A DNA stretch of 64,000 nt. It comes from Escherichia phage UB. The stretch lies in sequence record MH383160, one strand, 5' to 3'. Shown here one piece after another: positions 4,523-64,000 of the stretch. The notes under the pieces are model-generated. The model did not search any database. It had not been told where the DNA came from and worked only from the letters and a program-made list of their open reading frames with translations. Both the position numbers and the translations under genes were made by a program. Position 1 is the first letter of the stretch. Each line of letters begins with the position of its first letter.

Positions 4523-4840
4523 TTATTCTTTTACCTCATCAGTTTGAATGTATTTTTTGTCAGAGAATGTACCGTGTTCTTTACGCACAGCTTCTGCATG
4601 TTGAACCGCATCAACTGGATTAATGTTCTTTTTAATTAGTACTTCCTTCATTAATTCAAGTACAATTGCAAAACCATTCAGCACACGCTCAGATTCATCT
4701 ACATTTTTTAATTCAAGTGCTACTGCACTAATTTGATCGAACGCAACATTAATAAAATCGGAATCTTCTAATACATTTGCTACTTCCGTATTATTACGTA
4801 CTAGTACTTTCATATAATCTCCACAAAGATGATGCCCCAT
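4523..4840 (-). CDS. hypothetical protein
   Basis: 105 aa ORF immediately upstream of and abutting 4075..4521. Confidence 0.5.
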   Translation of the reverse strand: MGHHLCGDYMKVLVRNNTEVANVLEDSDFINVAFDQISAVALELKNVDESERVLNGFAIVLELMKEVLIKKNINPVDAVQHAEAVRKEHGTFSDKKYIQTDEVKE

Positions 4841-4861
4841 ATTGAGGCATCAAAATCTATC

Positions 4862-5557
4862 TTACACCCACTCTTCCACGCCACCGCGACGCTTAACTAA
4901 GTACTTACCTTCTTCATTGCGTGGCCCAAGAATAATACCATCGATGAAACCATGTTCACCATATTCAAGAGCTTCTTCTGCATTTAACCACAAATCACGG
5001 TCTGCATCTTTAAGTAGTTGTTCGTGTGTTACACCAACTGCTTCTGCAATTTCTTTAGTCAATAGAGTGTTTAGGGCATCAGAATGTTTAAGTGAAATCT
5101 TCTGGTCAGTAATTAGACCTTGTGTACCAGAACTTACTTGGTGACACATGAAATAAGAACGCTTACCACCTAAACGGAAACCTTTAGTGCCAATTACAGA
5201 TTGTGTATAGCAACCCATTGATGCTGCATAGCCCATTACTACAGTGCGAATTGGAGAAATACAAGACTTAGCAACATCTGCAATACCCAAACCTGCGTGT
5301 ACTGAACCACCCGGTGAACTAATGTAGAATGTAATAGGGGAATCACCTTGTGAGTCTAACCATACCAATTGTTGTTTGATGATATGTGCCATTTGATCAT
5401 TGAAATCAGTATCAAGGAAAATGATACGGTCTTGCATCATACGAGATGCTAGATCATATGTACGTTCTGAACCATTAACTTTCTCAACTACGTAAGGAAT
5501 AGAAATGTTACGTACTTCGCCATTAGCATAACCACCAAACATGAATTGTTCAACCAT
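4862..5557 (-). CDS. clpP: ATP-dependent Clp protease proteolytic subunit (ClpP) homologue
   Basis: Canonical ClpP segments: YISSPGGSV, MGYAASMG (catalytic Ser), MCHQ (His), DADRD (Asp); colinear with bacterial ClpP as recalled. Confidence 0.85.
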   Translation of the reverse strand: MVEQFMFGGYANGEVRNISIPYVVEKVNGSERTYDLASRMMQDRIIFLDTDFNDQMAHIIKQQLVWLDSQGDSPITFYISSPGGSVHAGLGIADVAKSCISPIRTVVMGYAASMGCYTQSVIGTKGFRLGGKRSYFMCHQVSSGTQGLITDQKISLKHSDALNTLLTKEIAEAVGVTHEQLLKDADRDLWLNAEEALEYGEHGFIDGIILGPRNEEGKYLVKRRGGVEEWV

Positions 5558-5621: not shown

Positions 5622-6062
5622 CTATTTTACTGGAATATTTGAAAAGAAATCAGTCATCCAATACGCCGTCTCTTTGTTGAATAATACTGGATCAAACTTA
5701 AGTAACTCAACATGACTTGTATCATACACGCTTGTATCGGTAATGTCAAACAAAGTTTTAGTACTGAATAGTGGATTACTCACTAGAAAGTAGTAATCAG
5801 CAGTAGTGCTAATGTCATCATAAAACACACCGTCATACCATCCATCATCATATACATAAACAGAATCGTCATGAAGATAGTAAACTTCTATATGTAAACT
5901 CAAGTTCTTCATGGTTTCAATCATTTTTGCCGTATGAGGATTTAACTTATTGACATTTTCAAAAACATAAGAGTGTTTTTTATTCATATCAACAAATGAA
6001 AATATTCGTACTGAACGTATATTCATATTACTCCAAATAAACAAGTGAATTAATGAAATCAT
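5622..6062 (-). CDS. hypothetical protein
   Basis: 146 aa minus-strand ORF. Confidence 0.45.
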   Translation of the reverse strand: MISLIHLFIWSNMNIRSVRIFSFVDMNKKHSYVFENVNKLNPHTAKMIETMKNLSLHIEVYYLHDDSVYVYDDGWYDGVFYDDISTTADYYFLVSNPLFSTKTLFDITDTSVYDTSHVELLKFDPVLFNKETAYWMTDFFSNIPVK

Positions 6063-6411
6063 ATTTCAATTTATCATCAACATAATTCAAATCAACTTTA
6101 ATCATCGGAGCATGGGAACGTATAGACAGTGTTTCCATAAAGTACTGATTAAGTTTGTATGTATGGAAAAGATGAATATCTCGTTTCAACACCACCATTA
6201 CTTCCCCGAACAGATCACAGAGTTCAACTTCAGTGTTAGTTGGGTCAAACCCATAACGATTCTTTAATGTACGTGGTTCTTTATTTCGATAATAATGCAC
6301 AGCTTTATTACTATTCACTAACAAGTGATGATATGCATTACTATAAACTGAGCAAATAACTCGGCTTGGATAATTGGTATATTCTGGTAGTTCAAAATAA
6401 ATTAATGACAC
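6028..6411 (-). CDS. hypothetical protein
   Basis: 127 aa minus-strand ORF. Confidence 0.45.
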   Translation of the reverse strand: MSLIYFELPEYTNYPSRVICSVYSNAYHHLLVNSNKAVHYYRNKEPRTLKNRYGFDPTNTEVELCDLFGEVMVVLKRDIHLFHTYKLNQYFMETLSIRSHAPMIKVDLNYVDDKLKYDFINSLVYLE

Positions 6412-6423
6412 AATATCCTCTCA

Positions 6424-7215
6424 TTAAATTTCAAATACAAATTTAGGATTGTAATCAAAATTCTCACAAGCTCCACTGTATGATTCATAGCCTCGTGGAT
6501 TACAAATGATACGTGTCTTACCAATGTGGTAGTCAAAGCTACTATGAACATGACCATGAATCCAAACATCAGCACCCAAATCTTCAATGTACTGATCCAT
6601 ATCGGAACAGTAACAACCATTCAGTGAATCATTTTTATATTTTGGTGAAACACTTTGATAACTTGGTGCGTGATGGGTAACCACGATGACCTTGAAATCA
6701 TTATCATGCATAAAGCGAACTGTGTCAATAGAATTTTTGATAAATTGTTTATCTTTGTGATGCATAAACTCAGTATCATCTGGTGTCAGTTTCTTACGCC
6801 AAGGCTCTGATGTTGTTCCATGACGGATATGTTTGTAATCGTTCATCTTCTGACGAGCATCAAACTTCGTCAAAGAATTACCTTTATCGAAGTCTGTCCA
6901 CAGAGTACTACCAACAAGCAGTACTCCATCCAGCCATACAAATTTGTTTTGCAAAAAGATGAAATTTGGAATCTCATCTTGTATATCGGACAGTACTTGG
7001 TGCGTCTTGTGAATGTTTGAACCGTAATATTCATGGTTACCTGGAACCAGTACTACATTCTTAAACTGCTTACACAGGGATTCAATGCCAGTACGATAAC
7101 GACTACGTTTAACTTCATCAAAATCCCCAGCAATAATCAGTACTGTATCACTGTAATCACCACTATGGAGGTAATCAGTACCACCGTGTACGTCAGACGT
7201 TACAACAAATTTCAT
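6424..7215 (-). CDS. calcineurin-like metallophosphoesterase
   Basis: Metallophosphatase signature blocks: SDVHGG (D-x-H), GDFD, GNHE, VTHHAP, GHVH. Confidence 0.75.
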   Translation of the reverse strand: MKFVVTSDVHGGTDYLHSGDYSDTVLIIAGDFDEVKRSRYRTGIESLCKQFKNVVLVPGNHEYYGSNIHKTHQVLSDIQDEIPNFIFLQNKFVWLDGVLLVGSTLWTDFDKGNSLTKFDARQKMNDYKHIRHGTTSEPWRKKLTPDDTEFMHHKDKQFIKNSIDTVRFMHDNDFKVIVVTHHAPSYQSVSPKYKNDSLNGCYCSDMDQYIEDLGADVWIHGHVHSSFDYHIGKTRIICNPRGYESYSGACENFDYNPKFVFEI

Positions 7216-7234
7216 AATTACCTCCTATAAGTGT

Positions 7235-8653
7235 TTAGCCAAGTGATTCAATGATACTGTTTGAGAACACCTCAACAGCACTATCACGAATTTCTAAAAT
7301 ACGAGTATAGTCGTCACAAGTGTTTTTGTCAAATCTAAATTCAATAAACACTGGTAAGAACAGTGATGGCTCACCAGTACGCTTGTCGAATACAATGTCA
7401 TTACACTCAACTGTAACCACTTTACCAATAAGTTCTTGCATTCTTTCCCAAATGGTTTTAAAGGTCCATTCAGCATCTTTCTCTTTGATACCAGTACCCA
7501 CATTAACTTTCAATGAACCACAAGCACTTTCCAGTTGTAAAGAACCTAGGCTTCCTTTACGTTTACCTTCACCTTCATTGAAACCAACAATACGCAAGTC
7601 TAGTTGCATTTTCAATTTCATTTTCAACTGCTTCGGAGAAGTGTGAGATTTCCAGATACCATCTTCACATTTCAGTACTGAACCCTCTTCACCTTCGTTC
7701 ATTAGTTCACTATTGTACTCAAATGCTTCTTTGATGTTTAGAACTTTACGGAATCTAACCATACGAACAAAATCACTATTGAGTTCGTTAATTGCATCTA
7801 CTAAGATCTCGCGACGTTCTTTACGTTTTACATCCCATACACCTTCACAAAATGCATCATATGGAACAACATCCCATAGAACGAATACAGTACGCATTGC
7901 TTCATTCTGACTGATGCTATCTTTACCAGCTTTCTGAATTATACCGTTGCCAGTAGTGCGTGGGAGAATGGTTTCTCCATCATTGTCCAGTACTACACCT
8001 TCCCCCATAAAGACCACACCACTACTAAAACGTTCATCTTTACTTTGGATGATGTGAGCAAGACCTGCCATCTCACCATCACGACAACCCAGGAAGTCGT
8101 ATAGTTTACCATTACGGGATGTAGAAGTTAATGAACCATTAATGACAACGTGGTTCAAGTACTGACCATCCATTTTCACTTCTGATATAGCGTAACCATA
8201 ATCTTTGAAGTTGATGTTCTTTGCAGTCTTTTTGTCAATCAAAGAACAACGCATATATGGTTCGTCTTTAATAAAGCCTTTACCAAATACATCATTGCAG
8301 TTCTTTTCTTGAATACCACAATCAAGGTTTTTAGTAAGCATTTTACGGAGAACTTCCTGATCATCTTCAGATACAGAACCCAGTACTGAAGCAATGAAAT
8401 CACGCCCCGCATTTCCTGTCACATCACGCTTGTAAATGCATTCTAGCTTATCAATTGCTTCATCTAACGTCATATGTTGATATACGTCATCAGCGGCAGG
8501 GAGCTTCTTATAGCCACTAACGATAGAAGGGTCTAGAGTATATTTCAGTACTTTTTGTAAAGTTACATTATCTTTATTTTGTTCAAGAATAGCTTTTTTG
8601 CCTAGTGTACTGCTAGTATTTTTAATGCTTTCAAGAATTGCTAAAATGCTCAT
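7235..8653 (-). CDS. 30: ATP-dependent DNA ligase (T4 gene 30-like)
   Basis: Nucleotidyltransferase motif I K-x-D-G (EVKMDGQYL); N-terminal region MSILAILESIK..STLGKKAILEQNKDN closely parallels T4 DNA ligase N-terminus as recalled; 472 aa. Confidence 0.9.
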   Translation of the reverse strand: MSILAILESIKNTSSTLGKKAILEQNKDNVTLQKVLKYTLDPSIVSGYKKLPAADDVYQHMTLDEAIDKLECIYKRDVTGNAGRDFIASVLGSVSEDDQEVLRKMLTKNLDCGIQEKNCNDVFGKGFIKDEPYMRCSLIDKKTAKNINFKDYGYAISEVKMDGQYLNHVVINGSLTSTSRNGKLYDFLGCRDGEMAGLAHIIQSKDERFSSGVVFMGEGVVLDNDGETILPRTTGNGIIQKAGKDSISQNEAMRTVFVLWDVVPYDAFCEGVWDVKRKERREILVDAINELNSDFVRMVRFRKVLNIKEAFEYNSELMNEGEEGSVLKCEDGIWKSHTSPKQLKMKLKMQLDLRIVGFNEGEGKRKGSLGSLQLESACGSLKVNVGTGIKEKDAEWTFKTIWERMQELIGKVVTVECNDIVFDKRTGEPSLFLPVFIEFRFDKNTCDDYTRILEIRDSAVEVFSNSIIESLG

Positions 8654-8664
8654 TGTATATTCCT

Positions 8665-9867
8665 TTATAGATAATACTTTCCAATATAAAGTGGATTACT
8701 AATTGATAGTTGAACGTGACACGGCTTATCTTGGTAGTAACGAGAACTTGATGTTTTGCGTTCATTTGGTGGGAAGAATGGGGAACGATAGCCATTCCAT
8801 GTACTAAATGATGAGTGTTCATTAATATCAACATCCATTACCATAATCCCATTATCATCAATTTGAACTGGATATGCACTAAAGCGTTCAAATTTATCAT
8901 TATAATGGATATTATAATCTCCACTACGCCCATAATAACTACGCGTTGTATTATTACTTACACCAAAAAATACGCGATATGTTTGTTCATTATCTTTAGT
9001 CATAAATGGTACGTTCTCGTTGAAACGTCCATTATTCATAAGATCATCAACATTTATTTCTTCATATTTAATTTTTAGGTCTTTTGCTTTAAATGATTTA
9101 TTGTGTACCAGTACTGGAATGTTAGATTCACCTAATGGGTTATGTCTGTTTGTTCTATAGCTTTGCCAAAATTCATTAGCAAGTTTAATTTCTTCATCTG
9201 CCGTAGTCTTCTTATTCAAGAGTGCACGAGGTTCAAGATTGTAATTATCCAAACGTTGATTCAATGCATAAGTTCCACGAGTACTGTTAAAAAGTAAATG
9301 ATAAACTGAACTTTTGTCTGGATATGCAAATTCTTTAGTTTTCTTTATACAAATTGCATGTACTTTACCGCAGTAATAGTAATCTTCTTTAAGATAAGTG
9401 AAACCATCACCAACTTTAAGACCTGCTACAGTTTCTTTTTGTTGTTCTTTTTTATTTTCTTTTTCAACTAACTTAGCAAACGTTTTTGTTTTACCATTAA
9501 TTAATTCTAAGTTATTGTTGAAAAACATTGGGTCTACAAAAACACCTTTGATTATATCGTTATTGATAATTAAATCATTCATGTTTTTTGCACTAATCAT
9601 AAATTCAAATCCTTCTGGGTGACGGATCGTGAAATATGTTTCTCGTGCATGAGTTGTTAATTTATCAACTACACAAAATCCCGTAGTTGGAACGTTGTCA
9701 ATATATAACGATGGAAGATTGTTCTTCTTTGCCCAGTACTCTGCTCTCTCTTTCTTTGTTTCAAACGCTTTTGTATGTGATTTTGTTGCATCGATAATAA
9801 AACCATCAACTTGGTTGTGGTTTACATAGGAACGTGCAACAAATAACTTCTCTGGAAAATCCATCAA
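8665..9867 (-). CDS. hypothetical protein
   Basis: 400 aa minus-strand ORF directly downstream of ligase; no motif recognised. Confidence 0.55.
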   Translation of the reverse strand: MMDFPEKLFVARSYVNHNQVDGFIIDATKSHTKAFETKKERAEYWAKKNNLPSLYIDNVPTTGFCVVDKLTTHARETYFTIRHPEGFEFMISAKNMNDLIINNDIIKGVFVDPMFFNNNLELINGKTKTFAKLVEKENKKEQQKETVAGLKVGDGFTYLKEDYYYCGKVHAICIKKTKEFAYPDKSSVYHLLFNSTRGTYALNQRLDNYNLEPRALLNKKTTADEEIKLANEFWQSYRTNRHNPLGESNIPVLVHNKSFKAKDLKIKYEEINVDDLMNNGRFNENVPFMTKDNEQTYRVFFGVSNNTTRSYYGRSGDYNIHYNDKFERFSAYPVQIDDNGIMVMDVDINEHSSFSTWNGYRSPFFPPNERKTSSSRYYQDKPCHVQLSISNPLYIGKYYL

Positions 9868-10283
9868 ATTGTCCTCATTGTGCTGATTGCTTTTAATGTG
9901 TCAAACAATGCACCATATTTTACTTGCATTAGTTGATCACCAGCAGGAAGATTCATACGCATAACAGCCATGTCTTCAATCATTTCAGACGTACACAGTA
10001 CTGCTACACAGGTAATAGCATCATTCAATCCAGCTTCATTGAATTTGGCAAACGGAACTTTTCCCTGTTTGCTAAGGTTGTTATAATAAGAATTTAACTT
10101 ATCATGTCCACCAGCATTTAGTACTACAATAGTTTCGTGTTCATAGTACCATTCATCAATAATAGTACTGAAAGCAGTACCTTCATATTCTTTAATTAGT
10201 TTAACACCAGCATGGAATGCTTGAATACCAGCTTGGACACCTTGGCAGTACATATTAGTTAAACAATACAATTTCATTTCCAT
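9864..10283 (-). CDS. hypothetical protein
   Basis: 139 aa ORF; start overlaps upstream stop. Confidence 0.5.
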   Translation of the reverse strand: MEMKLYCLTNMYCQGVQAGIQAFHAGVKLIKEYEGTAFSTIIDEWYYEHETIVVLNAGGHDKLNSYYNNLSKQGKVPFAKFNEAGLNDAITCVAVLCTSEMIEDMAVMRMNLPAGDQLMQVKYGALFDTLKAISTMRTI

Positions 10284-10501
10284 ACCTCTTGTTTTTCTAA
10301 AAACCCTTTACCATCACAGCGTGGACATGCATAATAGCTGCGATAGTCTTCAGATGGCACTTGTTGTGTTCCATTACATGTAGGACACACTTTACGTGCA
10401 CCTGAAATAATACGTTCATGATGTTCAGCTTGTTTAGCTGAATCAAAAATGCGACCATCTTCAGTTTGGTATTTTTCTACCATAACTTGAATTACTTTCA
10501 T
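10274..10501 (-). CDS. small zinc-ribbon protein
   Basis: 75 aa with two Cys pairs, CPTC and CPRC, spaced about 20 residues apart. Confidence 0.5.
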   Translation of the reverse strand: MKVIQVMVEKYQTEDGRIFDSAKQAEHHERIISGARKVCPTCNGTQQVPSEDYRSYYACPRCDGKGFLEKQEVWK

Positions 10502-10511
10502 TTCTATTTCC

Positions 10512-10781
10512 TTATAAAAATGTTAAATCTTCAGTACTTAATTGTGATAATTTACCATCATATTCAATTTCAACATATACATTTTGGTCATAAACAGCAA
10601 CTACACGTTTAATAACTCCAACCTTCACGACATTCTTTTTGTAGTTGAACTCAACTGAACAACCAATAAGTTTATTTGATAGAATCTCACGTATTTGATT
10701 TGCATGATCTTTTAGGATAGAATTAATAGATTTTTTCATAATATATCTATCATTCAAATATTTTTTAACTACATCATGCAT
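10512..10781 (-). CDS. hypothetical small protein
   Basis: 89 aa ORF. Confidence 0.45.
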   Translation of the reverse strand: MHDVVKKYLNDRYIMKKSINSILKDHANQIREILSNKLIGCSVEFNYKKNVVKVGVIKRVVAVYDQNVYVEIEYDGKLSQLSTEDLTFL

Positions 10782-10786
10782 AATTA

Positions 10787-11545
10787 TTACCTTTTGAAAC
10801 GATTGAATGAGTACTCATCTTTTTCTTTACGTAAGTATCTCATTCCACCACTTTGTGGAGTAGCGAGAGTTAAGTCACCCGTCAAGAACTGACTATCAAT
10901 CCAAATGCGATTACCGTAAATTAGTGGATCTGTAACTGCTGTATGTCCACTAAAGACACAATGCACTCCATCTAACTTAGGTGCATAATATGTATTATTA
11001 GTTCTACAATAATCGAATGTTTTTCTATCCCACAAGCACTTATCAATTATATCAGCACTAAGTGATTTTGTCCCATTAACAAATCGTTCCCATGTTGTAT
11101 ATTCCAACGGAACTCCAGCATGAACTAACCCAATCTTCAATCCTCGGTGATTGATTTGGATAATCATAGGGAGATCCTTTAAGTACTGACGAAAGAATTG
11201 AATGCCTGTTCCTCCAACTTCATCAAGGAATTTATCACCACCATTACTTATCCAGCAATGATACCAATCTCGAAGTGTTTCCGAATCAACGCACATCATC
11301 TCATGATTACCCGCAATCATGTAACGATTTTCTCCGAACAAAAATTCAAAAAGGAGCTTTGAATTTTGTTCTCCACGGTCGATAATATCACCTACACTGA
11401 AAACATAATCATTGTGTGTAATACCAAATTCTTTCACTGTAGCATCCCATAGTTTTCCATTACCATGCAAATCACCTACAATGTATAAATCTTTATCATC
11501 AGGTACGGTTACTTCTAAGAAGTGTTTCATTATTACTCCAACCAT
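10787..11545 (-). CDS. Ser/Thr protein phosphatase (lambda PPase-like metallophosphatase)
   Basis: PPP-family motifs GDLHG, GDIIDRG, GNHE, plus downstream His-containing blocks (VHAG, SGHT). Confidence 0.75.
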   Translation of the reverse strand: MVGVIMKHFLEVTVPDDKDLYIVGDLHGNGKLWDATVKEFGITHNDYVFSVGDIIDRGEQNSKLLFEFLFGENRYMIAGNHEMMCVDSETLRDWYHCWISNGGDKFLDEVGGTGIQFFRQYLKDLPMIIQINHRGLKIGLVHAGVPLEYTTWERFVNGTKSLSADIIDKCLWDRKTFDYCRTNNTYYAPKLDGVHCVFSGHTAVTDPLIYGNRIWIDSQFLTGDLTLATPQSGGMRYLRKEKDEYSFNRFKR

Positions 11546-11784
11546 ATAATATTAGTGTGTTTAGTAACTTGTGTTCCAGCAAAAGAACCATCTTTAAGAT
11601 AAGTATTAATTTTAAAACGCCATTCACCACCACTAATATACATATCAGTAATAATATACTTTCCATACCCTCTGGAGTTTATTAATCGTACTTCTTGACC
11701 AATATATTTTGGCTTCAGATCATTTATAAAATCATCAGCCAAAGACATAAGATATCGCAGATGTGATAAGTCAGTGTTGAACAT
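11533..11784 (-). CDS. hypothetical small protein (K-Y-x-G family)
   Basis: 83 aa; motif LKPKYIGQEVRL shared with several other small ORFs in the window. Confidence 0.45.
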   Translation of the reverse strand: MFNTDLSHLRYLMSLADDFINDLKPKYIGQEVRLINSRGYGKYIITDMYISGGEWRFKINTYLKDGSFAGTQVTKHTNIIWLE

Positions 11785-11999
11785 TATTTCTTTCTCTTAT
11801 ATTTGTTAATAATATCTTGGGTAAGTGAAATAAAAATATATACTAATGTTACAGGCCAAATAATAGCCATCAGTGCTGCTGTTTGGAGATTCATGATAAT
11901 CATGATTTCATCTTTAAAACAACCCCAATTGAGTACTAGAAAGTTGGTTATAAATGTAACAAATGCTACAAATCCATATATTGCAAAAAATGTTATCAT
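11784..11999 (-). CDS. small membrane protein
   Basis: 71 aa, two hydrophobic helices. Confidence 0.4.
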   Translation of the reverse strand: MITFFAIYGFVAFVTFITNFLVLNWGCFKDEIMIIMNLQTAALMAIIWPVTLVYIFISLTQDIINKYKRKK

Positions 12000-12001
12000 A
12001 A

Positions 12002-14727: not shown

Positions 14728-14972
14728 TATAATAAACCTCTCACATAAAACATTGATGAAAATAGATAATCATCAGTACTTGTGTTTAGATGTTTAGAAA
14801 AGCTATATTTTTTATTTTTATTTTCGTATAAAGACAATCTATAGAACATTTCTATATTTTCTAAGTATTCTTTTTGTAATAACATCTGTGTTTTTACATT
14901 CATTATAATATTCCTTAAAAGAAAAAGGGACCAACATATGATCCCTTTTGTATTAGAAATTTCCTTCTGCAA
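14727..14972 (-). CDS. hypothetical small protein (start probably at an internal Met)
   Basis: 81 aa track ORF; its 5' part overlaps pseT 3' end and a weak hairpin, so the real start is likely downstream. Confidence 0.3.
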   Translation of the reverse strand: MQKEISNTKGIICWSLFLLRNIIMNVKTQMLLQKEYLENIEMFYRLSLYENKNKKYSFSKHLNTSTDDYLFSSMFYVRGLL

Positions 14973-15885
14973 CTTGAAAAACTTTCAAGCCAAGTAGCTT
15001 ACGCCACATGAATACGACTTGTGCTCGGTCATCATATACCTTTTTAACATCGTAATGATCAACCACATTTTTCATGTACAGGTCGAATTTTACAACATCA
15101 TCAGGACGTTTATCATCGATATCTCGCATAAACAATGCATCGTAAGGAACACCCCAATTCTTAAGCCACTGTTCGGTATCAGCACGACACCCTTCAGTAC
15201 GCCCACTCATGACGATAATCTTGCGTTTATGAAAAACTGCTTCAGCGATAATAGACAAAATAACTTCTTCATCAGGTGTATCCTGAAGAACAGTACTTTC
15301 ATCGTAAGGATTACGACCCCATTTATGAGCAAGAGTACCGTCAATATCAACGATAACAGCAGCTTCGCGTGAATTACCATAGTAACCAATGTGTAATGCT
15401 TTACTATAATAGTACGTATCTGCCATTTTGTCAATGATATCATCTGGTACTGAACGCCCACGCTGGAGGTTATATTTCTTACAAAGTTTTACGAACTCTT
15501 TAATCTTAAAGAATTCATGAACATCTGCACCACGGTCTTCATTAGGTACAAAATCATCATAGAAGTTCTTTTCTTTGTAATCATAACCATTATCTGTAGC
15601 CCATACTTTCCAGAGATCACGGAAATGTGGTTTAAGGTTCGTATCGGATACGATGATGTTCCAACCATTCTCTGCTGCTGAATTTGCTGCACTGAACTGT
15701 AAATTATCTACGTACTGCTCATTAGCATCGTTGAATTTGTAAGCATCATGTGACCCAGCCATAGATTCACGAATATCATCACGGTTGATGTTGATAGTCT
15801 TGGATTTGGCTTTTTTAATCTCTTGCACTGCCCATGTAGTTTTACCACACCCAGGCAATCCAACTGTTAATGTGATAGTTGGCAT
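14953..15885 (-). CDS. pseT: polynucleotide 5'-kinase / 3'-phosphatase
   Basis: Walker A GLPGCGKTT near N-terminus; HAD-like phosphatase motif VIVDIDGTLA; C-terminal DDVVK, DDRAQVVFMWR and QVAEGNF colinear with T4 Pnk as recalled. Confidence 0.9.
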   Translation of the reverse strand: MPTITLTVGLPGCGKTTWAVQEIKKAKSKTININRDDIRESMAGSHDAYKFNDANEQYVDNLQFSAANSAAENGWNIIVSDTNLKPHFRDLWKVWATDNGYDYKEKNFYDDFVPNEDRGADVHEFFKIKEFVKLCKKYNLQRGRSVPDDIIDKMADTYYYSKALHIGYYGNSREAAVIVDIDGTLAHKWGRNPYDESTVLQDTPDEEVILSIIAEAVFHKRKIIVMSGRTEGCRADTEQWLKNWGVPYDALFMRDIDDKRPDDVVKFDLYMKNVVDHYDVKKVYDDRAQVVFMWRKLLGLKVFQVAEGNF

Positions 15886-16708: not shown

Positions 16709-17851
16709 CTAAAAATCCTTTAGTACAATTTTCATGTATTTTATAAGAGTCTCTTTGTAATCAACTTTCTTATTGTTATACATTGCAAAGGCCAAGCCCT
16801 GACGATTCAGTTCATTAGTTAAACACTCCTGAACCTTCATTGCGAATTCCTTTCGCTCCAAGTGCTTGTGTTCCTTGACGAAGCTTTCTACTTCATCTTG
16901 TAATGCATTATAGCACGAAAATACCAATTGTTCCATTCTTAATATCTTTTGCATAGCATATTCATCAGTACTGAACAATTGTTTTAAATCATCACTTGAA
17001 CCATTTAATACTGCTTCATATAAATGAGAATCAATAATAATACTATCTTTTGTAAGATGTAATGAACTGTACCAGTCAGTCTTTATTTTACACATTGTCC
17101 CATTATTTAGGATGCACACAAAACCCTCAATATCAAGCATTTTATGAACTTCCTCCACGCTTTCACGGAAGGTATTTCGTACCGGAAAAGTGTGATGAAT
17201 ATCTTTTCCAGTCATATTAGTACTGTACTGTGCAAGACATGGAAACTTATCACGTAGTGCTTTACCACATAGCAACTCACCACTCACACGATGACGAACG
17301 TTCAGTACAAACAGTTGTTCTACCTGATATGGTAATACAATTCGGTACTCTGGGCTTGTATACTCCATATTAACTGTGTAACCTAAACGTTCCGCTTCGT
17401 CGATGTACTGATACAAATTCTGGTTCTCGTTAATAAGTCGAGTACTGTTAATCGCATGGTCAGAATACAATGCTGTATGTGATTTACAACGAATCTCACC
17501 ATCATTATCACGGTAAGTACTGATAATCGAACCATCCAACTTAGGCATCACTACCGCAATGTCATCGCATGTGGTGTTAGCAGGGAACATTGTAGCAGGA
17601 TTCTCGTAAGCATTGAAGAACTTTTTCATTGTACGTGCTGCACAACGTATCATGTCACCTTCTTCATCAATTTCCCACATAGAGCCACGGGTTTCCAATG
17701 CATTTGGTTGCATGAAATCAGTGTATGATGCTAGACGATAACTGAATACACGATACGTGCCACCAGCAGGACTTTTATGATCCACATAAAAGAATGCATC
17801 GTTTGTATTACATAAGTGCATTAAATCTTCATATATTTGCAAAAGGGTCAT
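16709..17851 (-). CDS. rnlA: RNA ligase 1 (T4 gene 63 / Rnl1 homologue)
   Basis: Adenylylation lysine motif K-x-D-G (MPKLDGSIIS); blocks FFY, RVFSY, ASY, EGFV, KIKTDWY, GSSDDLK, DEY colinear with T4 Rnl1 as recalled; 380 aa. Confidence 0.88.
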   Translation of the reverse strand: MTLLQIYEDLMHLCNTNDAFFYVDHKSPAGGTYRVFSYRLASYTDFMQPNALETRGSMWEIDEEGDMIRCAARTMKKFFNAYENPATMFPANTTCDDIAVVMPKLDGSIISTYRDNDGEIRCKSHTALYSDHAINSTRLINENQNLYQYIDEAERLGYTVNMEYTSPEYRIVLPYQVEQLFVLNVRHRVSGELLCGKALRDKFPCLAQYSTNMTGKDIHHTFPVRNTFRESVEEVHKMLDIEGFVCILNNGTMCKIKTDWYSSLHLTKDSIIIDSHLYEAVLNGSSDDLKQLFSTDEYAMQKILRMEQLVFSCYNALQDEVESFVKEHKHLERKEFAMKVQECLTNELNRQGLAFAMYNNKKVDYKETLIKYMKIVLKDF

Positions 17852-21107: not shown

Positions 21108-21248
21108 TATGCAAAGTAAACCCTAAACCAACACCGACAAATGGAAATAGTAAATTGATATACCAAGTATTAATTGATGAAAGGAAACAAATCCCACATA
21201 CTGTCAGTACTGCCAATGAAAAAAGACTCCAGATAAAAAATACTGTTC

Positions 21249-21539
21249 TCATAAAAATATTACCTCATCAAATGAAAAGTTTAAGTACGTTGTTGAATCT
21301 TGGTCTAAACTATGAATAGTAATATGACCATTGAAATAAAAAGAAACATCAACTATTTGAAGTTTTGGGTATTTTCTAGTACTGAAATATCTACCCACTA
21401 ACACAGCATATATATAATCCCTGTACTCTTGAGTAATGAATTCATACATATTATGATTTGCACTGCACTTTTCATCATAAGTATTAGTATATTCTTTCAT
21501 CAGTAGAGCATATGTTTTTTGTATTAATATGATATTCAT
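21249..21539 (-). CDS. hypothetical small protein
   Basis: 96 aa ORF. Confidence 0.4.
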   Translation of the reverse strand: MNIILIQKTYALLMKEYTNTYDEKCSANHNMYEFITQEYRDYIYAVLVGRYFSTRKYPKLQIVDVSFYFNGHITIHSLDQDSTTYLNFSFDEVIFL

Positions 21540-21799
21540 AAATCACCTAATACCTCAAAAATTACTGATATTGGGTATAATGGGTTACCAGTTGAAGTAA
21601 TACATACAATTAGTACGTTTTTTCCTGGTCCCACATCCGTTATAGTGAAATTAATATTATTAATATTCAGTGATTTACCAATATAATGCTCTTTCAATAA
21701 TTCAACAAAATAATCCAGTACTGGATTATCTGCACTATATGATAACTCAGTACTTGATATCATTTTATATGTATGAACTATTAGTTCAGCTTTAGTCAT
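21536..21799 (-). CDS. hypothetical small protein (K-Y-x-G-like)
   Basis: Track ORF 21536..21922 trimmed to internal Met (MTKAEL...) to avoid overlap with upstream gene; contains KEHYIGKSL. Confidence 0.35.
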   Translation of the reverse strand: MTKAELIVHTYKMISSTELSYSADNPVLDYFVELLKEHYIGKSLNINNINFTITDVGPGKNVLIVCITSTGNPLYPISVIFEVLGDL

Positions 21800-59942: not shown

Positions 59943-60154
59943 ATCTTTTCCTGTACAATCTGTATAAGAATACCTATGTGTGAATTAACAGTTCTCTCTT
60001 GATGCTGTGTTCCTAAGAGTGTCAGTACTATCATATCTGAACGCAAAAGATTTTTTTCAAGTTCACTTATATCAGTTCTTGAATCAAGTGCCATATATTT
60101 GTGATTATTCTTCCTGAATAGTGCCAAGTACTCTTGATTTGATATTTCCTTCAT
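59939..60154 (-). CDS. family B small protein
   Basis: 71 aa; LTLLGTQHQERTV. Confidence 0.5.
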   Translation of the reverse strand: MKEISNQEYLALFRKNNHKYMALDSRTDISELEKNLLRSDMIVLTLLGTQHQERTVNSHIGILIQIVQEKI

Positions 60155-60372
60155 AGTTTATTCCTGATGCCATTTAAAAGTGCTCTAATATGCTCATTGA
60201 CAAATCGCTCTTGGGAATCTGTTCCTAGAGTGAGTAGCAATCTTAAATCTGAACTTTTGATGTGATATTCTAAATCATTATTTGATTCTTGCATCAGTTT
60301 CTTAAAGGATGAGAAGTTTGCAGCCATTAGTTCAATGTATTCTGCTGTTCCTAGTGGTTTGTGTGTTGACAT
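60151..60372 (-). CDS. family B small protein
   Basis: 73 aa; LLTLGTDSQERFV. Confidence 0.5.
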   Translation of the reverse strand: MSTHKPLGTAEYIELMAANFSSFKKLMQESNNDLEYHIKSSDLRLLLTLGTDSQERFVNEHIRALLNGIRNKL

Positions 60373-60584
60373 TTGAGTTGTATTACCCTTTTGAGTGTAT
60401 TAATGTAATTATACACATTGGCTTCTTGATAGTTTGTTCCTAGAGTAGCTTGAACATAGATTTCATTTAACTTAATAATTTTATCAGTATCTGGTAGTTT
60501 TGATGTGTTAATGGCAAATAACTTCAAAAACAGTCCATTTAAGATTGTTAGGTATTCTTCGTCGGTAATGATTCGCATTTGCAT
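60351..60584 (-). CDS. family B small protein
   Basis: 77 aa; ATLGTNYQEANV. Confidence 0.5.
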   Translation of the reverse strand: MQMRIITDEEYLTILNGLFLKLFAINTSKLPDTDKIIKLNEIYVQATLGTNYQEANVYNYINTLKRVIQLKCQHTNH

Positions 60585-60796
60585 TGGATAAACCTTTTTA
60601 GTTCTTTGATGTAATCATTAATATTGCATTCTTGGTAGTTAGTTCCCAGTGTAGCTTGAACATAGATTTCACTTACTAGAATACTTATTTCATCATCTGG
60701 TAATTTCATGCTTTTTGTTATAAACAACTTTAGAATTAAACTACTTAATAGTTGGTTGTATTCTGTGGGTGAAATGATTTTCATTTTCATTTGCAT
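60548..60796 (-). CDS. family B small protein
   Basis: 82 aa; ATLGTNYQECNI. Confidence 0.5.
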   Translation of the reverse strand: MQMKMKIISPTEYNQLLSSLILKLFITKSMKLPDDEISILVSEIYVQATLGTNYQECNINDYIKELKRFIQCKCESLPTKNT

Positions 60797-61002
60797 TTTC
60801 TCAGTACTGATTCTTTAAGTTCATTGATGTAGTCCTCAACGAATTGTTCTTGTAGGTTTGTTCCGAGATATAACAGTACTCTTAAATCTGCTCTAAGTAC
60901 TTCTTTGTCATCTTCATCTATATCAGACAGTGTTATGTTTAAGAATTTACTTGAATTCTCTACAAGTAATATTACTTCTTCACCTTCTCTTAAAATTTTC
61001 AT
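60787..61002 (-). CDS. family B small protein
   Basis: 71 aa; LYLGTNLQEQFV. Confidence 0.5.
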   Translation of the reverse strand: MKILREGEEVILLVENSSKFLNITLSDIDEDDKEVLRADLRVLLYLGTNLQEQFVEDYINELKESVLRKCK

Positions 61003-61208
61003 AATCTTAGTGCTTTCCTCGACAGTAGGTACAGGTAACGTTCAGTGCATTGTTCTTGATAGTTTGTTCCTAATAAATGAACTAAATGTTGTTCAGCTAT
61101 AGAAAGCTGCTTGTCTTCATAACAAGCGTATCGTTGTTTCCTATGGTATTCTTTATTGATAACATCAAGGATGATAACACCGTATTCGTCATCTGTCAAG
61201 TGTTTCAT
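60999..61208 (-). CDS. family B small protein
   Basis: 69 aa; HLLGTNYQEQCT. Confidence 0.5.
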   Translation of the reverse strand: MKHLTDDEYGVIILDVINKEYHRKQRYACYEDKQLSIAEQHLVHLLGTNYQEQCTERYLYLLSRKALRL

Positions 61209-61446
61209 GCTTTTTTCTTTTTCTTATATGTTTAGTTAAAAGGTATATTAGTTTTCTGATGTATTCTTCCTGATAGTTTGTTCCTAAGAGTGCAAGAAGT
61301 TTTGCTTCAACTAAAGCTAATTGACGTTCTTCGAATGTGTGTTCCAGTATGTACTTGGGGTTTGATTTTTTAGCGTAAGCACTATTAGTCTTCATTACAA
61401 TCTTATGATATTCATTAGCTGTTAGGATTTTTAAATACTTGATCAT
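61189..61446 (-). CDS. family B small protein
   Basis: 85 aa; ALLGTNYQEEYI. Confidence 0.5.
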   Translation of the reverse strand: MIKYLKILTANEYHKIVMKTNSAYAKKSNPKYILEHTFEERQLALVEAKLLALLGTNYQEEYIRKLIYLLTKHIRKRKKHETLDR

Positions 61447-61666
61447 GTATCTTTTCCTTTATAGAGAATTTAAGATATCGAAGCATACTTTCAATGTAAT
61501 ACTCTTGTCTGTCAGTGCCAAGAAAGTACATGAGTTGAATGTATAAAACTTCTGCACTCCTTTCCGCTGGAGACTTGTTTGTGTCGTTTGGAAGTTGATT
61601 TGTATGTTTTCTTGATTTAATTAGTCGTTCTTTTAACTCATCGTCTGTTAAGTATTTCATTTTCAT
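61415..61666 (-). CDS. family B small protein (PAERSAEVL subtype)
   Basis: 83 aa; PAERSAEVLYIQLMYFLGTDRQEYYI. Confidence 0.5.
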   Translation of the reverse strand: MKMKYLTDDELKERLIKSRKHTNQLPNDTNKSPAERSAEVLYIQLMYFLGTDRQEYYIESMLRYLKFSIKEKIHDQVFKNPNS

Positions 61667-61892
61667 TTACTTTTTCCTTAATAGTAATTTTAAGATATCT
61701 AATCATACGTGCAACATATTCCTCTTGTCTATCAGTTCCCAGAAGATATGGTAGTGATTGGAATAATACTTCTGCACTCCTTTCTGCTGGGGTTTGGTTT
61801 AGGTCAATTGGACGTTTATTGGTATATCTCTTGGCACGAACTAATCTCTCGACGTATTCATTATAGGTTAAGTATATCATTTCATTTTGCAT
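61638..61892 (-). CDS. family B small protein (PAERSAEVL subtype)
   Basis: 84 aa; PAERSAEVLFQSLPYLLGTDRQEEYV. Confidence 0.5.
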   Translation of the reverse strand: MQNEMIYLTYNEYVERLVRAKRYTNKRPIDLNQTPAERSAEVLFQSLPYLLGTDRQEEYVARMIRYLKITIKEKVNENEILNRR

Positions 61893-62118
61893 TTACTTTT
61901 TCCTTAATAGTAATTTTGAGATATTTAATTATACGTTCAATGTGATACTCTTGCCTATCAGTTCCAAGAAGGTATGGTAATCTTTGGAATAAAACTTCCG
62001 CACTCCTTTCTGCTGGGGTTTGATTTGTGTTGTGAGGAAGTTTATTTGTAAGTCTTTTGGATTTATCTAGTCTTTCTGTTAACTCATCATGTGTTAAGTA
62101 TATCATTTCATTTTGCAT
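61882..62118 (-). CDS. family B small protein (PAERSAEVL subtype)
   Basis: 78 aa; PAERSAEVLFQRLPYLLGTDRQEYHI; N-terminus MQNEMIYLT identical to neighbour. Confidence 0.5.
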   Translation of the reverse strand: MQNEMIYLTHDELTERLDKSKRLTNKLPHNTNQTPAERSAEVLFQRLPYLLGTDRQEYHIERIIKYLKITIKEKVNAK

Positions 62119-62345
62119 TTAATGTTCCTTACGTAAATTGTCTGGATTAAACAATCAATCCAAGTTTGAATATATTGGTTTTGATACTGTGTGCCTAAGA
62201 GACTCTGCATTTTAAACTCTGCTTCAAGTTCATATCTCTTTTCTATAGAAAAGCTCAAATGACCATATTCTTTATCGTATCTTCTCAGTGCTTCCCCAAT
62301 TCTATTAAATCTTTCTGCTAATCTGATGTTATTCACAATATTCAT
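62103..62345 (-). CDS. family B small protein
   Basis: 80 aa; SLLGTQYQNQYI. Confidence 0.5.
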   Translation of the reverse strand: MNIVNNIRLAERFNRIGEALRRYDKEYGHLSFSIEKRYELEAEFKMQSLLGTQYQNQYIQTWIDCLIQTIYVRNIKCKMK

Positions 62346-62632
62346 CGATCAGTATACCTCAGTGGTTGGGTCATTTGATAAAAGTACAGCTTACCTTTGA
62401 TTTCCAGTAGTAACTCCGCGATTAAGCGATTTACTTCTGTATCTTGATAGTTTGTTCCTAAGAATACACCCATCTTTAACTCACGCATCATAATCATTTT
62501 CTTACTGTGTTGGATTTCTGGGTTGTGATAAATTGTATTACGTTTGTGCGTAATTTTTGTCATACGCTCGGTATATTCATCTTTACTTAAATTGATCATT
62601 TGCATGTTAATTACCCTTACATTTATTTTCAA
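62342..62632 (-). CDS. family B small protein
   Basis: 96 aa; VFLGTNYQDTEV. Confidence 0.5.
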   Translation of the reverse strand: MKINVRVINMQMINLSKDEYTERMTKITHKRNTIYHNPEIQHSKKMIMMRELKMGVFLGTNYQDTEVNRLIAELLLEIKGKLYFYQMTQPLRYTDR

Positions 62633-62837
62633 TACTATTCATGAGTTCTATAAGATAGTTTTCTACCTTACCTTCCTGATAGTTAGTCCCTAGGAAGTTG
62701 CACAACACGGCTTCTATGATTTTGATTTTCCTGATATCAGGCTTCAATCTTTTGTTATTGAATATTTGAATCCTTATATCTCTGGATGCATTTAAACGTT
62801 TTTGATATTCATGGTAAGTTAAATGAATCATTTTCAT
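62607..62837 (-). CDS. family B small protein
   Basis: 76 aa; NFLGTNYQEGKV. Confidence 0.5.
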   Translation of the reverse strand: MKMIHLTYHEYQKRLNASRDIRIQIFNNKRLKPDIRKIKIIEAVLCNFLGTNYQEGKVENYLIELMNSIENKCKGN

Positions 62838-63052
62838 TTACGTTTAACCTCTCGCTGGAGGGCATCAATTAACATCAGTACAGCATTCTCTTGATAGTTT
62901 GTTCCTAAGACTGAAAGCATCTTTATCTCATTTACTAAAATCAACTTCTTTGAGGGTTCAATAATGTGACTATCATAAACGGCCTTACGTGCTGGATAAG
63001 TTTTCGCCAGTATAACATAAAATTCGTCTTTACTTAAATTAATCATTTGCAT
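62834..63052 (-). CDS. family B small protein
   Basis: 72 aa; SVLGTNYQENAV. Confidence 0.5.
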   Translation of the reverse strand: MQMINLSKDEFYVILAKTYPARKAVYDSHIIEPSKKLILVNEIKMLSVLGTNYQENAVLMLIDALQREVKRK

Positions 63053-63965: not shown

Positions 63966-64000
63966 CTAGTTTATCCTGTATAACATTCGTTAATTGTTCG

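Follow-up and report, generated by a model that had tools for sequence, protein, structure and literature searches.

The two proteins analyzed here have their closest described counterparts in different branches of the metallophosphoesterases. One branch includes lambda phosphatase (NinI; PDB 1g5b), T5.035, and PrpA/PrpB. The natural substrate of lambda phosphatase has not been identified (PMC2190708). Like the homologous phosphatase domain of CthPnkp, an RNA end-healing 2',3'-phosphatase from Clostridium thermocellum, it cleaves 2',3'-cyclic phosphates/nucleotides in vitro (PMC2190708, PMC3675462). R53 of lambda phosphatase contacts a phosphate-mimicking sulfate. The equivalent arginine in CthPnkp is essential for monoesterase activity (PMC2190708). 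For the second protein, the nearest described enzyme is PptH (Rv2795c) of M. tuberculosis, which cleaves bis-pNPP and not pNPP and is thus a diesterase rather than a monoesterase (PMC8557913). In sequence alignment, PptH carries an arginine four residues past the motif II aspartate despite having no pNPP activity (PMC8557913); judged from such alignments, the motif II arginine rule for monoesterase activity is a mere heuristic.

The gene array around the DNA ligase

The window, a 64,000-nucleotide stretch of Escherichia phage UB (MH383160), represents a PBECO4/121Q-type (Rak2-like) jumbo coliphage and shares 99.3% identity with phage JP4. Two metallophosphoesterase genes, ORF1 and ORF2, were found on its minus strand with the motifs that the initial annotation had listed. 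The features of the surrounding region are as follows.

4830..4852, minus strand: terminator-like hairpin after the ClpP gene (consensus scan only; 10-bp stem, T-rich tail)
4862..5557, minus strand: ClpP-family protease in the same co-directional array (Pfam CLP_protease, E 3.8e-41)
6424..7215, minus strand: ORF1, metallophosphoesterase of 263 aa, predicted phosphodiesterase (Pfam PF00149; phrog_1649; structural model)
7235..8653, minus strand: ATP-dependent DNA ligase of 472 aa (Pfam DNA_ligase_A_M, E 2e-14; phrog_114, E 6e-119)
8665..9867, minus strand: conserved 400-aa protein, directly upstream of the ligase (phrog_14061, E 2e-202)
9864..10283, minus strand: PTH2-like (peptidyl-tRNA hydrolase 2 fold) small hydrolase (Pfam PTH2, E 2.1e-5; phrog_3668 'hydrolase')
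10274..10501, minus strand: 75-aa CxxC zinc-ribbon protein, DnaJ/anti-TRAP-like (sub-threshold Pfam Anti-TRAP and DnaJ_CXXCXGXG; phrog_12574)
10512..10781, minus strand: 89-aa protein (phrog_38615 the sole match)
10787..11530, minus strand: ORF2, lambda-phosphatase (NinI/PrpA/PrpB)-type metallophosphatase of 247 aa (Pfam PF00149; phrog_246; 1g5b)
14923..14949, minus strand: terminator-like hairpin after the Pnkp gene (consensus scan only; 11-bp stem, T-rich tail)
14953..15885, minus strand: T4-type polynucleotide kinase/HAD 3'-phosphatase, Pnkp (Pfam HAD_PNKP, E 1.2e-43; AAA_33, E 5e-13)
16709..17851, minus strand: T4 Rnl1-type RNA ligase (Pfam RNA_lig_T4_1, E 9e-16; T4_Rnl1_C, E 7e-17)

The hairpins at 4830..4852 and 14923..14949 possibly mark the 3' end and the upstream boundary of the array, respectively, and the array holding ORF1 and ORF2 would consist of early or metabolic genes. 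The ligase is annotated as such in JP4 too. Pfam, NCBIfam, and PDB sequence searches returned no match for the 400-aa protein, whose position next to the ligase is kept in phage CBB (CBB_99), and the PTH2 match of the small hydrolase, at 25.2 bits, exceeded the cut-off (23).

The two phosphoesterase genes had been described as flanking the ligase. ORF1 does follow it directly, beginning 19 nt past the ligase stop with AGGAGG 5 nt upstream of its own start codon, whereas 2.1 kb containing four ORFs separates ORF2, on the upstream side, from the ligase start. ORF2 itself had been called from 10787 to 11545; the gene and its stop stand, but the start is probably an ATG 15 nt further in. The ATG at 11545 falls within the end of the upstream gene, and the one at 11530, preceded by GGAG at a distance of 5 nt, yields a protein of 247 aa, as in the JP4 annotation and the 244- to 248-aa homologues, so ORF2 most likely spans 10787-11530. 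No further members of either subfamily were found elsewhere in the window.

Rak2-like phages share the gene order phosphatase, ligase, metallophosphoesterase, ClpP. Both genes are already named in GenBank records for JP4, PBECO4, 121Q, CBB, and other phages, ORF1 as 'metallo-phosphoesterase' and ORF2 as 'NinI-like serine-threonine phosphatase'. The pairing of the two around a ligase is known from public genomes and is not new; because these annotate both proteins, the presence of two phosphoesterases here is real but ordinary.

Fold, motifs, subfamily placement, and synteny were settled for both proteins by the analysis. ORF1 and ORF2 are separate calcineurin-fold enzymes, as first proposed, and belong to different subfamilies: the models show the beta-sandwich with flanking helices typical of the superfamily, the top Foldseek matches of both were metallophosphoesterases throughout, and the two profiles aligned over the N-terminal 62 columns only (probability, 58%). 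All metal ligands were present in both alignments (ORF1, n = 67; ORF2, n = 20). Profile HMMs and structure prediction identified ORF2 as PPP-like and ORF1 as neither PPP-type nor Mre11-type, which upholds, as a classification, the earlier split between a PPP-type enzyme and another phosphoesterase. As a whole, the initial annotation was partly supported; the roles it suggested, in host signalling for one enzyme and on nucleotides or nucleic acids for the other, are conjectural. It is likely that the array of JP4-like jumbo coliphages combines two unrelated metallophosphoesterase branches, a lambda-type phosphatase (ORF2) and a putative phosphodiesterase (ORF1).

ORF2 and the lambda phosphatase clade

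ORF2 carries the motifs GDLHG, GDIIDRG, and GNHE plus H142 and H201, and matched Pfam Metallophos (PF00149) above the gathering score (E 6.2e-11; 43.5 bits). Across 20 homologues, D25, H27, D53, N80, H81, H142, and H201 were invariant, and the phosphate-binding arginines R57 and R174 were conserved in 20/20 and 18/20, respectively. When aligned with 1g5b, R57 and R174 correspond to lambda R53 and R162, and H142 and H201 to H139 and H186.

The suggested likeness to lambda phosphatase was borne out by both sequence and structure. The best PDB match was 1g5b by sequence (E 2.8e-16), and it also ranked first in Foldseek with the AF2 model (pLDDT 91.6; E 2.5e-15; TM 0.73 for the query and 0.84 for the target), followed by the ApaH-like 2qjc and then PP1/PP2A. 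ORF2 was assigned to phrog_246 'NinI-like' (E 6e-66), a family found in 1321 phage records, and shared 30% identity with T5.035 (E 5e-33). The NCBIfam PrpA/PrpB models were matched with an E value of 3.6e-17 and 63 bits, i.e., below the equivalog cut-off of 326. Placement in the lambda-phosphatase/PPP clade is thus supported by the motifs, the arginines, and the closest structure, and ORF2 is probably related at the orthologue level to lambda NinI, T5.035, and PrpA/PrpB of E. coli. The symmetrical Ap4A hydrolase ApaH (NF001204) was considered for ORF2 and rejected, the match covering the N-terminal half only with 32.1 bits (cut-off, 176).

Lambda phosphatase, T5.035, and PrpA/PrpB have the full motif set, both arginines, and a size similar to that of ORF2. 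Identity between ORF2 and lambda phosphatase is about 22 to 26%, with some 25 additional residues in ORF2. The ORF2 gene belongs to a lytic jumbo phage and not to a lambdoid nin region. The phosphatase domain of CthPnkp has the same active-site residues and, being homologous to lambda phosphatase, is therefore homologous to ORF2. It is, however, fused to a kinase/ligase, whereas ORF2 stands alone, and CthPnkp structures were absent from the 50 Foldseek matches listed for ORF2.

From these comparisons we infer monoesterase chemistry for ORF2. The protein would bind two Mn2+-type ions via D25, H27, D53, N80, H142, and H201, and R57, H81, and R174 would hold the phosphate of the phosphomonoesters that it cleaves. 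Its physiological substrate can be guessed at as most likely phospho-Ser/Thr/Tyr on proteins, and 2',3'-cyclic phosphates would be cleaved as a side activity.

ORF1, its family, and its nearest folds

All five metallophosphoesterase motifs are complete in ORF1: SDVHGG (D8, H10), AGDFD (D31), GNHE (N60, H61), THHAPS (H181), and HGHVH (H222, H224). Pfam Metallophos (PF00149) was matched with an E value of 4.5e-13 and 50.5 bits (cut-off, 21.5). The ligands D8, H10, D31, N60, H181, H222, and H224, together with H61, were invariant in an alignment of 67 sequences; these ligands would form a binuclear site, with H61 as the general acid. The position four residues past D31 is A, V, I, or S across the family, so that the arginine of GDxxDRG is absent, and K/R is frequent at the fifth and sixth positions. 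Further invariant residues (W106, D126, S188, Y229, and G242-Y243) are specific to the family.

ORF1 is a full-length member of phrog_1649 (E 9.7e-72; residues 1-263 against positions 36-306 of the 308-position profile), which includes CBB_102 and proteins of GAP32, KVP40-like vibriophages, T4-like cyanophages and rhizobiophages, phiCbK-like phages, and phage G. These 'metallo-phosphoesterase' members equal ORF1 in length, share its invariant residues, and show no difference of substance from it; a literature search found none with a characterized function. At E<=1e-30 the family comprised 9,742 50%-identity clusters, the best 150 of which were all 248-295 aa. Its members are single-domain proteins and occur in giant eukaryotic viruses (TM up to 0.87) and bacteria (30-38% identity) as well as in big phages. 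Many bacterial chromosomes carry a member as a lone gene, and no conserved operon partner was found for the bacterial relatives; some adjoin RecQ, UvrD, or topoisomerase III.

The AF2 model of ORF1 (pLDDT 96.1) consists of one 263-aa domain with no capping domain. The closest solved fold was PptH (6unc; Foldseek E 1.5e-10; TM 0.65-0.70; 19% identity), and MPPED2 was second (TM 0.58-0.60); TM values to Mre11, Dbr1, 5'-nucleotidase, GpdQ, and Rv0805 were about 0.45-0.54. Since the nearest solved folds, PptH and MPPED2, are phosphodiesterases, the model suggests that ORF1 most likely cleaves a phosphodiester. A PPP-type identity was rejected, there being no motif II arginine and no PPP enzyme among the 50 PDB matches listed.

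The binuclear metallophosphoesterase core of PptH is close in size to that of ORF1. PptH again came first in the PDB sequence-profile search (E 2.5e-8), with the match confined to residues 5-71, i.e., the generic motifs I-III; the C-terminal halves could not be aligned by sequence, and the invariant W106, D126, S188, Y229, and G242-Y243 set the ORF1 family apart from PptH. These matches could be taken to mean that ORF1 is a PptH-like protein phosphodiesterase that strips 4'-phosphopantetheine or another phosphodiester-linked group from carrier proteins of the host and so shuts down host lipid synthesis. A TM of 0.65-0.70 at 19% identity is nevertheless insufficient to fix the substrate, PptH is described as restricted to mycobacteria (PMC8557913), and neither the spread of the family over eukaryotic and bacterial viruses nor its gene neighbors show a link to lipid metabolism. 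We regard this role as extremely improbable.

The position of ORF1 among DNA-metabolism genes would also suit a nuclease acting on host DNA by degradation or nicking. The metallophosphoesterase Gp48 of mycobacteriophage A10ZJ24, which has phosphodiesterase activity, is reported to disrupt the integrity of the host genome, damaging its DNA and silencing defense genes (PMC12287305). T5 A1, whose record annotates a role in host DNA degradation, belongs to the calcineurin-like superfamily according to Iyer et al. 2021 (PMC7824862). ORF1 falls outside the families of both. T5 A1 falls in a different PHROG (phrog_1745; hhalign probability, 0.7%), as does Bxb1 gp47, a Cluster A relative that has been aligned with Gp48 (PMC12287305) (phrog_221; hhalign probability, 0.9%). 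Enzymes of the Mre11/SbcD type combine a nuclease and a capping domain (about 350-400 aa) and have a Rad50/SbcC ATPase gene adjacent; ORF1, with a single domain, no cap, and TM values of 0.44-0.49 to Mre11/SbcD, was rejected as one of them. No SbcC-type ATPase was found in the seven other ORFs scanned across 5622-10781. That many bacteria have lone copies on their chromosomes also argues against a toxic DNase, and a role as host-DNA nuclease is very unlikely.

MPPED2 and the class III cyclic-nucleotide phosphodiesterases (CpdA/Icc, Rv0805, and GpdQ) have the generic motif pattern and the HH-x-P motif IV seen in ORF1 ('HHAP'). ORF1 might accordingly destroy host second messengers, namely the cyclic mono-, di-, or oligonucleotides of CBASS, Pycsar, or type III CRISPR, or cAMP. 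Many of its relatives are labeled 'Icc-related phosphoesterase' by JGI, its structural matches include MPPED2 and Rv0805, and its N-terminal part matches the PADLOC candidate defense protein PDC-S10 (E 1.6e-11). Jumbo phages are also predicted to encode several counter-nucleotide phosphodiesterase families, calcineurin-like ones included (PMC7824862). However, CpdA/Icc itself (NF008359) was rejected, the hit being confined to the C-terminal part and scoring 15.6 bits (cut-off, 225), and TM values to Rv0805 and GpdQ were just 0.45-0.50. The family meant by Iyer et al. is that of T5 A1, of which ORF1 is not an orthologue. The literature searches made here turned up no metallophosphoesterase-fold enzyme degrading a nucleotide immune signal; the papers found assign their characterized examples to the 2H-family phosphodiesterases, to other nucleases, or to sponge proteins. 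With the family also common as a lone chromosomal gene in bacteria, a counter-defense function appears improbable.

Gene neighborhoods and candidate roles

A DNA ligase, ATP- or NAD-dependent, was found within 7 kb of ORF1 relatives in 12 of 43 phage lineages, which are not independent (14 were left at 45% identity). Other neighbors in the 43 lineages were ClpP (11), dCMP deaminase (9), FEN (6), NT5C (6), and DnaB (5). Linkage to ligases is only suggestive, since ClpP and dCMP deaminase occur about as often, and conserved synteny of an early-gene block accounts equally well for the pattern.

One reading of this setting is that ORF1 and ORF2 together heal DNA or RNA ends (3'-phosphates, 2',3'-cyclic phosphates, or adducts) for the DNA ligase and for the tRNA-repair pair Pnkp/Rnl1, and so protect the phage against anticodon nucleases or nicking defenses of the host. 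The ligase lies between the two genes; the minus strand also encodes Pnkp, the Rnl1-type ligase, and the PTH2-like hydrolase no more than 7 kb away, and the cleavage of 2',3'-cyclic phosphates by lambda phosphatase and CthPnkp is in keeping with it. So is a weak match of ORF2 to phrog_8238 'RNA ligase' (E 1.2e-6), which covers the phosphatase-like part. In a few jumbo phages, calcineurin-like domains apparently supply the end-healing phosphatase (Iyer et al. 2021, PMC7824862). Yet the Pnkp of this phage already has its own HAD 3'-phosphatase domain, ORF2 is nearer to lambda phosphatase than to CthPnkp, and neither gene is fused to a kinase or RNA ligase gene or has one as its immediate neighbor. 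Homologues of ORF2 also occur in T5 and lambda without such a module, and the ligase linkage does not clearly exceed what conserved synteny would give. A joint end-healing function is therefore doubtful.

For ORF1, diesterase chemistry is the inferred activity, and any physiological substrate is a guess. The family is spread over phages, giant eukaryotic viruses, and bacteria and tends to lie among genes of DNA and nucleotide metabolism, which makes a nucleotide- or nucleic-acid-linked substrate probable, although the gene-neighborhood evidence is weak. PptH frees a phosphodiester-linked group from a protein, and the ORF1 family recurs beside ligases of both types in unrelated phages and, in some bacteria, beside RecQ, UvrD, or topoisomerase III; on this basis, ORF1 could be a new phosphodiesterase that cleans DNA ends or protein-DNA adducts before ligation, an aprataxin/Tdp-like role served by a metallophosphoesterase fold. 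We consider this specific role, in a family of about 10,000 50%-identity clusters, unlikely.

Two metallophosphatase genes around the DNA ligase

Both of the metallophosphatases proposed in the initial annotation could be confirmed. ORF1 and ORF2 carry all of the motifs named for them, and each product passed the Pfam Metallophos model (ORF1, E value 4.5e-13 and 50.5 bits, where the cut-off is 21.5; ORF2, E value 6.2e-11). A strong AGGAGG sequence precedes the ORF1 start codon. For ORF2, the start of the longest ORF, ATG 11545, overlaps the last codons and stop of the upstream gene. ATG 11530 has a GGAG Shine-Dalgarno sequence 5 nt upstream and yields a 247-aa product, as annotated in Escherichia phage JP4, and ORF2 homologues span 244 to 248 aa. 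Because these three features agree, ORF2 was placed at 10787-11530, with ATG 11530 probably the true start of a 247-aa protein.

Features of the ORF1-ORF2 region, with coordinates and strand
4064-4043, intergenic, below the array: terminator-like hairpin (consensus scan)
4852-4830, intergenic, just after the ClpP gene: terminator-like hairpin (consensus scan)
4862-5557, minus: ClpP-family protease (Pfam E value, 3.8e-41)
6424-7215, minus: ORF1, 263 aa (SDVHGG, AGDFD, GNHE, THHAPS, HGHVH)
7235-8653, minus: ATP-dependent DNA ligase
8665-9867, minus: 400-aa protein, directly upstream of the ligase (phrog_14061)
9864-10283, minus: PTH2-like hydrolase, between ORF2 and the ligase
Between ORF2 and the ligase: 75-aa CxxC zinc-ribbon protein
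Between ORF2 and the ligase: 89-aa protein
10787-11530, minus: ORF2, 247 aa (GDLHG, GDIIDRG, GNHE, LVHAG, SGHT)
14949-14923, intergenic, just after the Pnkp gene: terminator-like hairpin (consensus scan)
14953-15885, minus: T4-type Pnkp (kinase and HAD 3′-phosphatase)
16709-17851, minus: Rnl1-type RNA ligase

The two enzymes had been described as flanking the ligase, which is true only loosely, since four ORFs part ORF2 from that gene. ORF1 starts 19 nt after the ligase stop codon, and ORF2 lies on the upstream side, 2.1 kb from the ligase start. For the 400-aa protein next to the ligase, whose position is also kept in phage CBB (CBB_99), nothing matched in Pfam, in NCBIfam or, by sequence, in the PDB; it may be a factor associated with the ligase. 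Because terminator-like hairpins follow the Pnkp and ClpP genes, ORF1, ORF2, the ligase and ClpP may belong to one transcription unit, as judged by a consensus scan only. A promoter scan remained at chance level (69 found, 70.6 expected). The ClpP gene is named differently across the group, as a head maturation protease in JP4 and as an ATP-dependent Clp protease proteolytic subunit in CBB.

Positions 6000-12000 share 99.3% identity with JP4 and 98 to 99% with phAPEC6, PBECO4, slurp01 and others, a group of 350-kb Rak2-like jumbo myoviruses. The window has a G+C content of ∼32%, and its minus strand carries nearly all genes. Base composition shifts across 60001-64000, with GC skew going up from about −0.15 to near 0 and AT skew down to about −0.2, a pattern suggestive of a switch in coding strand or gene module at the window end. 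In JP4, ORF1 is labeled a metallo-phosphoesterase and ORF2 a NinI-like serine-threonine phosphatase, with the ATP-dependent DNA ligase in between, and equivalent names are found in other GenBank records of the group. The pair is thus already annotated in many deposited genomes, and the finding in itself is ordinary and of little weight. No discussion of ORF1 or ORF2 was found in the published work consulted on PBECO4, 121Q, phAPEC6 and Sharanji.

ORF2, a relative of lambda phosphatase

On proper alignment, the metal ligands proved invariant across 67 relatives of ORF1 and 20 of ORF2. The view that the two represent distinct subfamilies was also upheld: ORF2 groups with lambda phosphatase, ORF1 falls in phrog_1649, and the relationship between the two is distant. 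ORF2 was assigned to phrog_246, annotated as NinI-like serine-threonine phosphatase (E value, 6e-66), and matched PDB entry 1g5b by sequence across residues 12 to 234 (E value, 2.8e-16). Its confident AlphaFold2 model (pLDDT 91.6) returned 1g5b as the top Foldseek match (target-normalized TM score, 0.84), followed by an ApaH-like protein and then PP1, PP2A and PP5. The phosphate-holding residues R53 and R162 of lambda phosphatase align with ORF2 R57 (conserved in 20/20 homologues) and R174 (18/20). By sequence and model, with all lines of evidence agreeing, ORF2 belongs with lambda phosphatase. Matches to the NCBIfam PrpA and PrpB models (E values, 3.6e-17 and 2.2e-14) scored well under the equivalog cut-offs, and ORF2 is therefore a relative rather than an orthologue of these E. 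coli enzymes. ApaH was rejected as its identity, the score being far under the curated cut-off.

The phage enzyme family to which ORF2 belongs is among the best known and is very common (1,321 phage records, with T5-like, rV5-like and lambdoid phages among them). Its T5 relative, T5.035, shares 30% identity (E value, 5e-33). In T5, the small metallophosphoesterase T5.034 and the NinI-like T5.035 are adjacent (16916-18300 in L092, the T5 locus retrieved), with a gene for an "ATP-dependent protease" a few kilobases away (21154-21753), a trio that echoes the grouping of ORF2, ORF1 and ClpP described here.

Keppetipola and Shuman report the physiological substrates of lambda phosphatase to be unknown (PMC2190708). 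The enzyme cleaves 2′,3′-cyclic nucleotides, and a homologous domain of CthPnkp heals RNA ends (PMC2190708; PMC3675462). The best-supported prediction is that ORF2 would cleave phosphomonoesters as a Mn2+-type enzyme of the lambda class, with phosphoproteins as its probable targets and possibly cyclic or 3′-phosphate ends as well. The Pnkp and RNA ligase genes lie on the same strand within 7 kb upstream of ORF2. Together with the PTH2-like hydrolase they form an RNA repair and translation-maintenance set beside ORF1 and ORF2, which suggests a defense against host anticodon nucleases.

ORF1, a predicted phosphodiesterase

ORF1 belongs to phrog_1649, which it matches over its full length (E value, 1e-71), and no meaningful NCBIfam match was obtained. 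A word-indexed search returned 830 matches, and searching 1.84 billion representatives with a profile gave 25,523, with 9,742 at an E value of ≤1e-30. The best 150 of these 25,523 were all 248 to 295 aa, and the protein is therefore stand-alone and single-domain; the same 150 held no domain fusions that could serve as a functional clue. No phrog_1649 member with a tested function was found. Beyond the metal ligands, the family keeps invariant residues of its own, namely W106, D126, P184, S188, Y229 and G242-Y243.

The AlphaFold2 model of ORF1 is very confident (pLDDT 96.1). Its nearest PDB fold is Mycobacterium tuberculosis PptH (6unc; E value, 1.5e-10; TM score, 0.65 to 0.70; 19% identity), followed by MPPED2 (0.58 to 0.60), and scores against Dbr1, Mre11/SbcD, 5′-nucleotidase, GpdQ, Rv0805 and SMPDL3A were about 0.42 to 0.54. 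PptH was also the sole notable PDB sequence-profile match, covering motifs I to III only. PptH cleaves bis-pNPP and not pNPP (PMC8557913). ORF1 lacks the motif II arginine, which CthPnkp requires to act as a monoesterase and which is absent from the diesterase-only MJ0936 and Rv0805 (PMC2190708). Since the nearest fold is that of a diesterase and this arginine is absent, ORF1 is predicted to be a phosphodiesterase. The arginine rule is only a heuristic, because PptH itself has an arginine at this position in the sequence alignment.

The initial annotation had suggested a Ser/Thr phosphatase and a nucleotide or nucleic acid phosphoesterase. For ORF1, the best-supported prediction is a binuclear phosphodiesterase whose substrate would most plausibly be nucleotide or nucleic acid linked. 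A rival explanation, a PptH-like protein phosphodiesterase, draws on the same nearest fold, at 19% identity. A second rival is a counter-defense phosphodiesterase cleaving second messengers. T5 A1 is the calcineurin-like enzyme that Iyer et al. (PMC7824862) describe as a counter-nucleotide phosphodiesterase; orthology of ORF1 to A1, which is in phrog_1745, was rejected (hhalign probability, 0.7%). In a third rival, ORF1 would be a nuclease acting on host DNA. Membership in the family of the host-DNA-damaging mycobacteriophage Gp48 and Bxb1 gp47 (phrog_221) was rejected (hhalign probability, 0.9%), the comparison being made via Bxb1 gp47, a relative from Cluster A that has been aligned with A10ZJ24 Gp48.

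Other identities were likewise set aside. Mre11/SbcD was rejected given the single domain, TM scores of 0.44 to 0.49 and the lack of an SbcC-type neighbor among the ORFs scanned, and equivalence to CpdA/Icc or YfcE was rejected with scores far under curated cut-offs. The small T5.034 falls in phrog_547, and its similarity to ORF1 is confined to the N-terminal motifs. Residues 1 to 111 of ORF1 also matched the PADLOC candidate defense protein PDC-S10 (E value, 1.6e-11), probably through generic motif I to III similarity.

Distribution and gene neighborhoods of the ORF1 family

By tblastn, the ORF1 family was found in 196 phage records, large phages almost throughout, including Rak2-like phages, KVP40-like vibriophages, T4-like cyanophages and rhizobiophages, phiCbK-like phages and phage G. 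A Foldseek search of viral models (BFVD) identified the same fold (TM score, 0.75 to 0.88) in the giant eukaryotic viruses Terrestrivirus, Port-miou virus, Pandoravirus, Pithovirus, Clandestinovirus and Yasminevirus, and the family is therefore common to viruses of bacteria and eukaryotes. Some of these giant-virus proteins are 446 to 492 aa, with extra sequence. Full-length relatives (30 to 38% identity) were identified in bacterial genomes, among them Burkholderiales, Chryseobacterium, Nostoc and Acaryochloris.

Rak2-like phages keep the order phosphatase, 400-aa protein, ligase, metallophosphoesterase and ClpP at ∼52% protein identity, and in more distant phages a DNA ligase was seen 1.3 to 3.4 kb from the ORF1 homologue, NAD dependent rather than ATP dependent in two cases. 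In unrelated metagenomic phage loci the ligase 1.3 to 3.5 kb from the homologue is NAD dependent (L006, 8071-9006; L008, 10153-12129; L019), unlike the ATP-dependent enzyme of this phage, and the two ligase types may have been swapped in place within a conserved gene block.

For an unbiased census of neighbors, ORFs were called in 91 phage loci and clustered by BLASTP, the loci forming 43 lineages at 60% metallophosphoesterase identity with ∼16 kb covered per lineage. DNA ligase led (12/43 lineages; 9 ATP type and 3 NAD type), at a median of ∼2 kb from the ORF1 homologue on either side. It was followed by ClpP (11 lineages), dCMP deaminase and a 220- to 260-aa family with no assigned function (9 each), WYL_2 and an HTH protein (7 each), Hsp20, a 5′-3′ exonuclease and NT5C deoxynucleotidase (6 each), and DnaB and a second small metallophosphoesterase (5 each). 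By chance, a single-copy gene in genomes of 100 to 350 kb would be expected in roughly 5 to 16% of lineages, against 28% for the ligase, which is thus somewhat enriched.

This proximity bears on another rival explanation, in which ORF1 and ORF2 heal ends jointly with the ligases and Pnkp. However, the enrichment of ClpP and dCMP deaminase is similar to that of the ligase, and the 43 lineages merge into 14 at 45% identity and so are not independent. Functional coupling of ORF1 to the ligase was therefore kept only as a weak lead, and the pattern is read as placing ORF1 in a conserved block of early genes that serve DNA and nucleotide metabolism.

No conserved operon partner of ORF1 relatives was found in the bacterial genomes scanned. 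Relatives adjoin RecQ in Nostocales (L093, L100 and L151), a UvrD/Rep-like helicase in Pandoraea (L096 and L104) and one metagenome-assembled genome (L109 is also listed), and topoisomerase III in Chryseobacterium (L126 and L165). These adjacencies, in about four lineages, are not clearly above chance.

The residual value of the pair lies in phrog_1649, a large family present in bacteria and in viruses of both bacteria and eukaryotes, where a substrate found for one member would provide annotation for thousands of genes.
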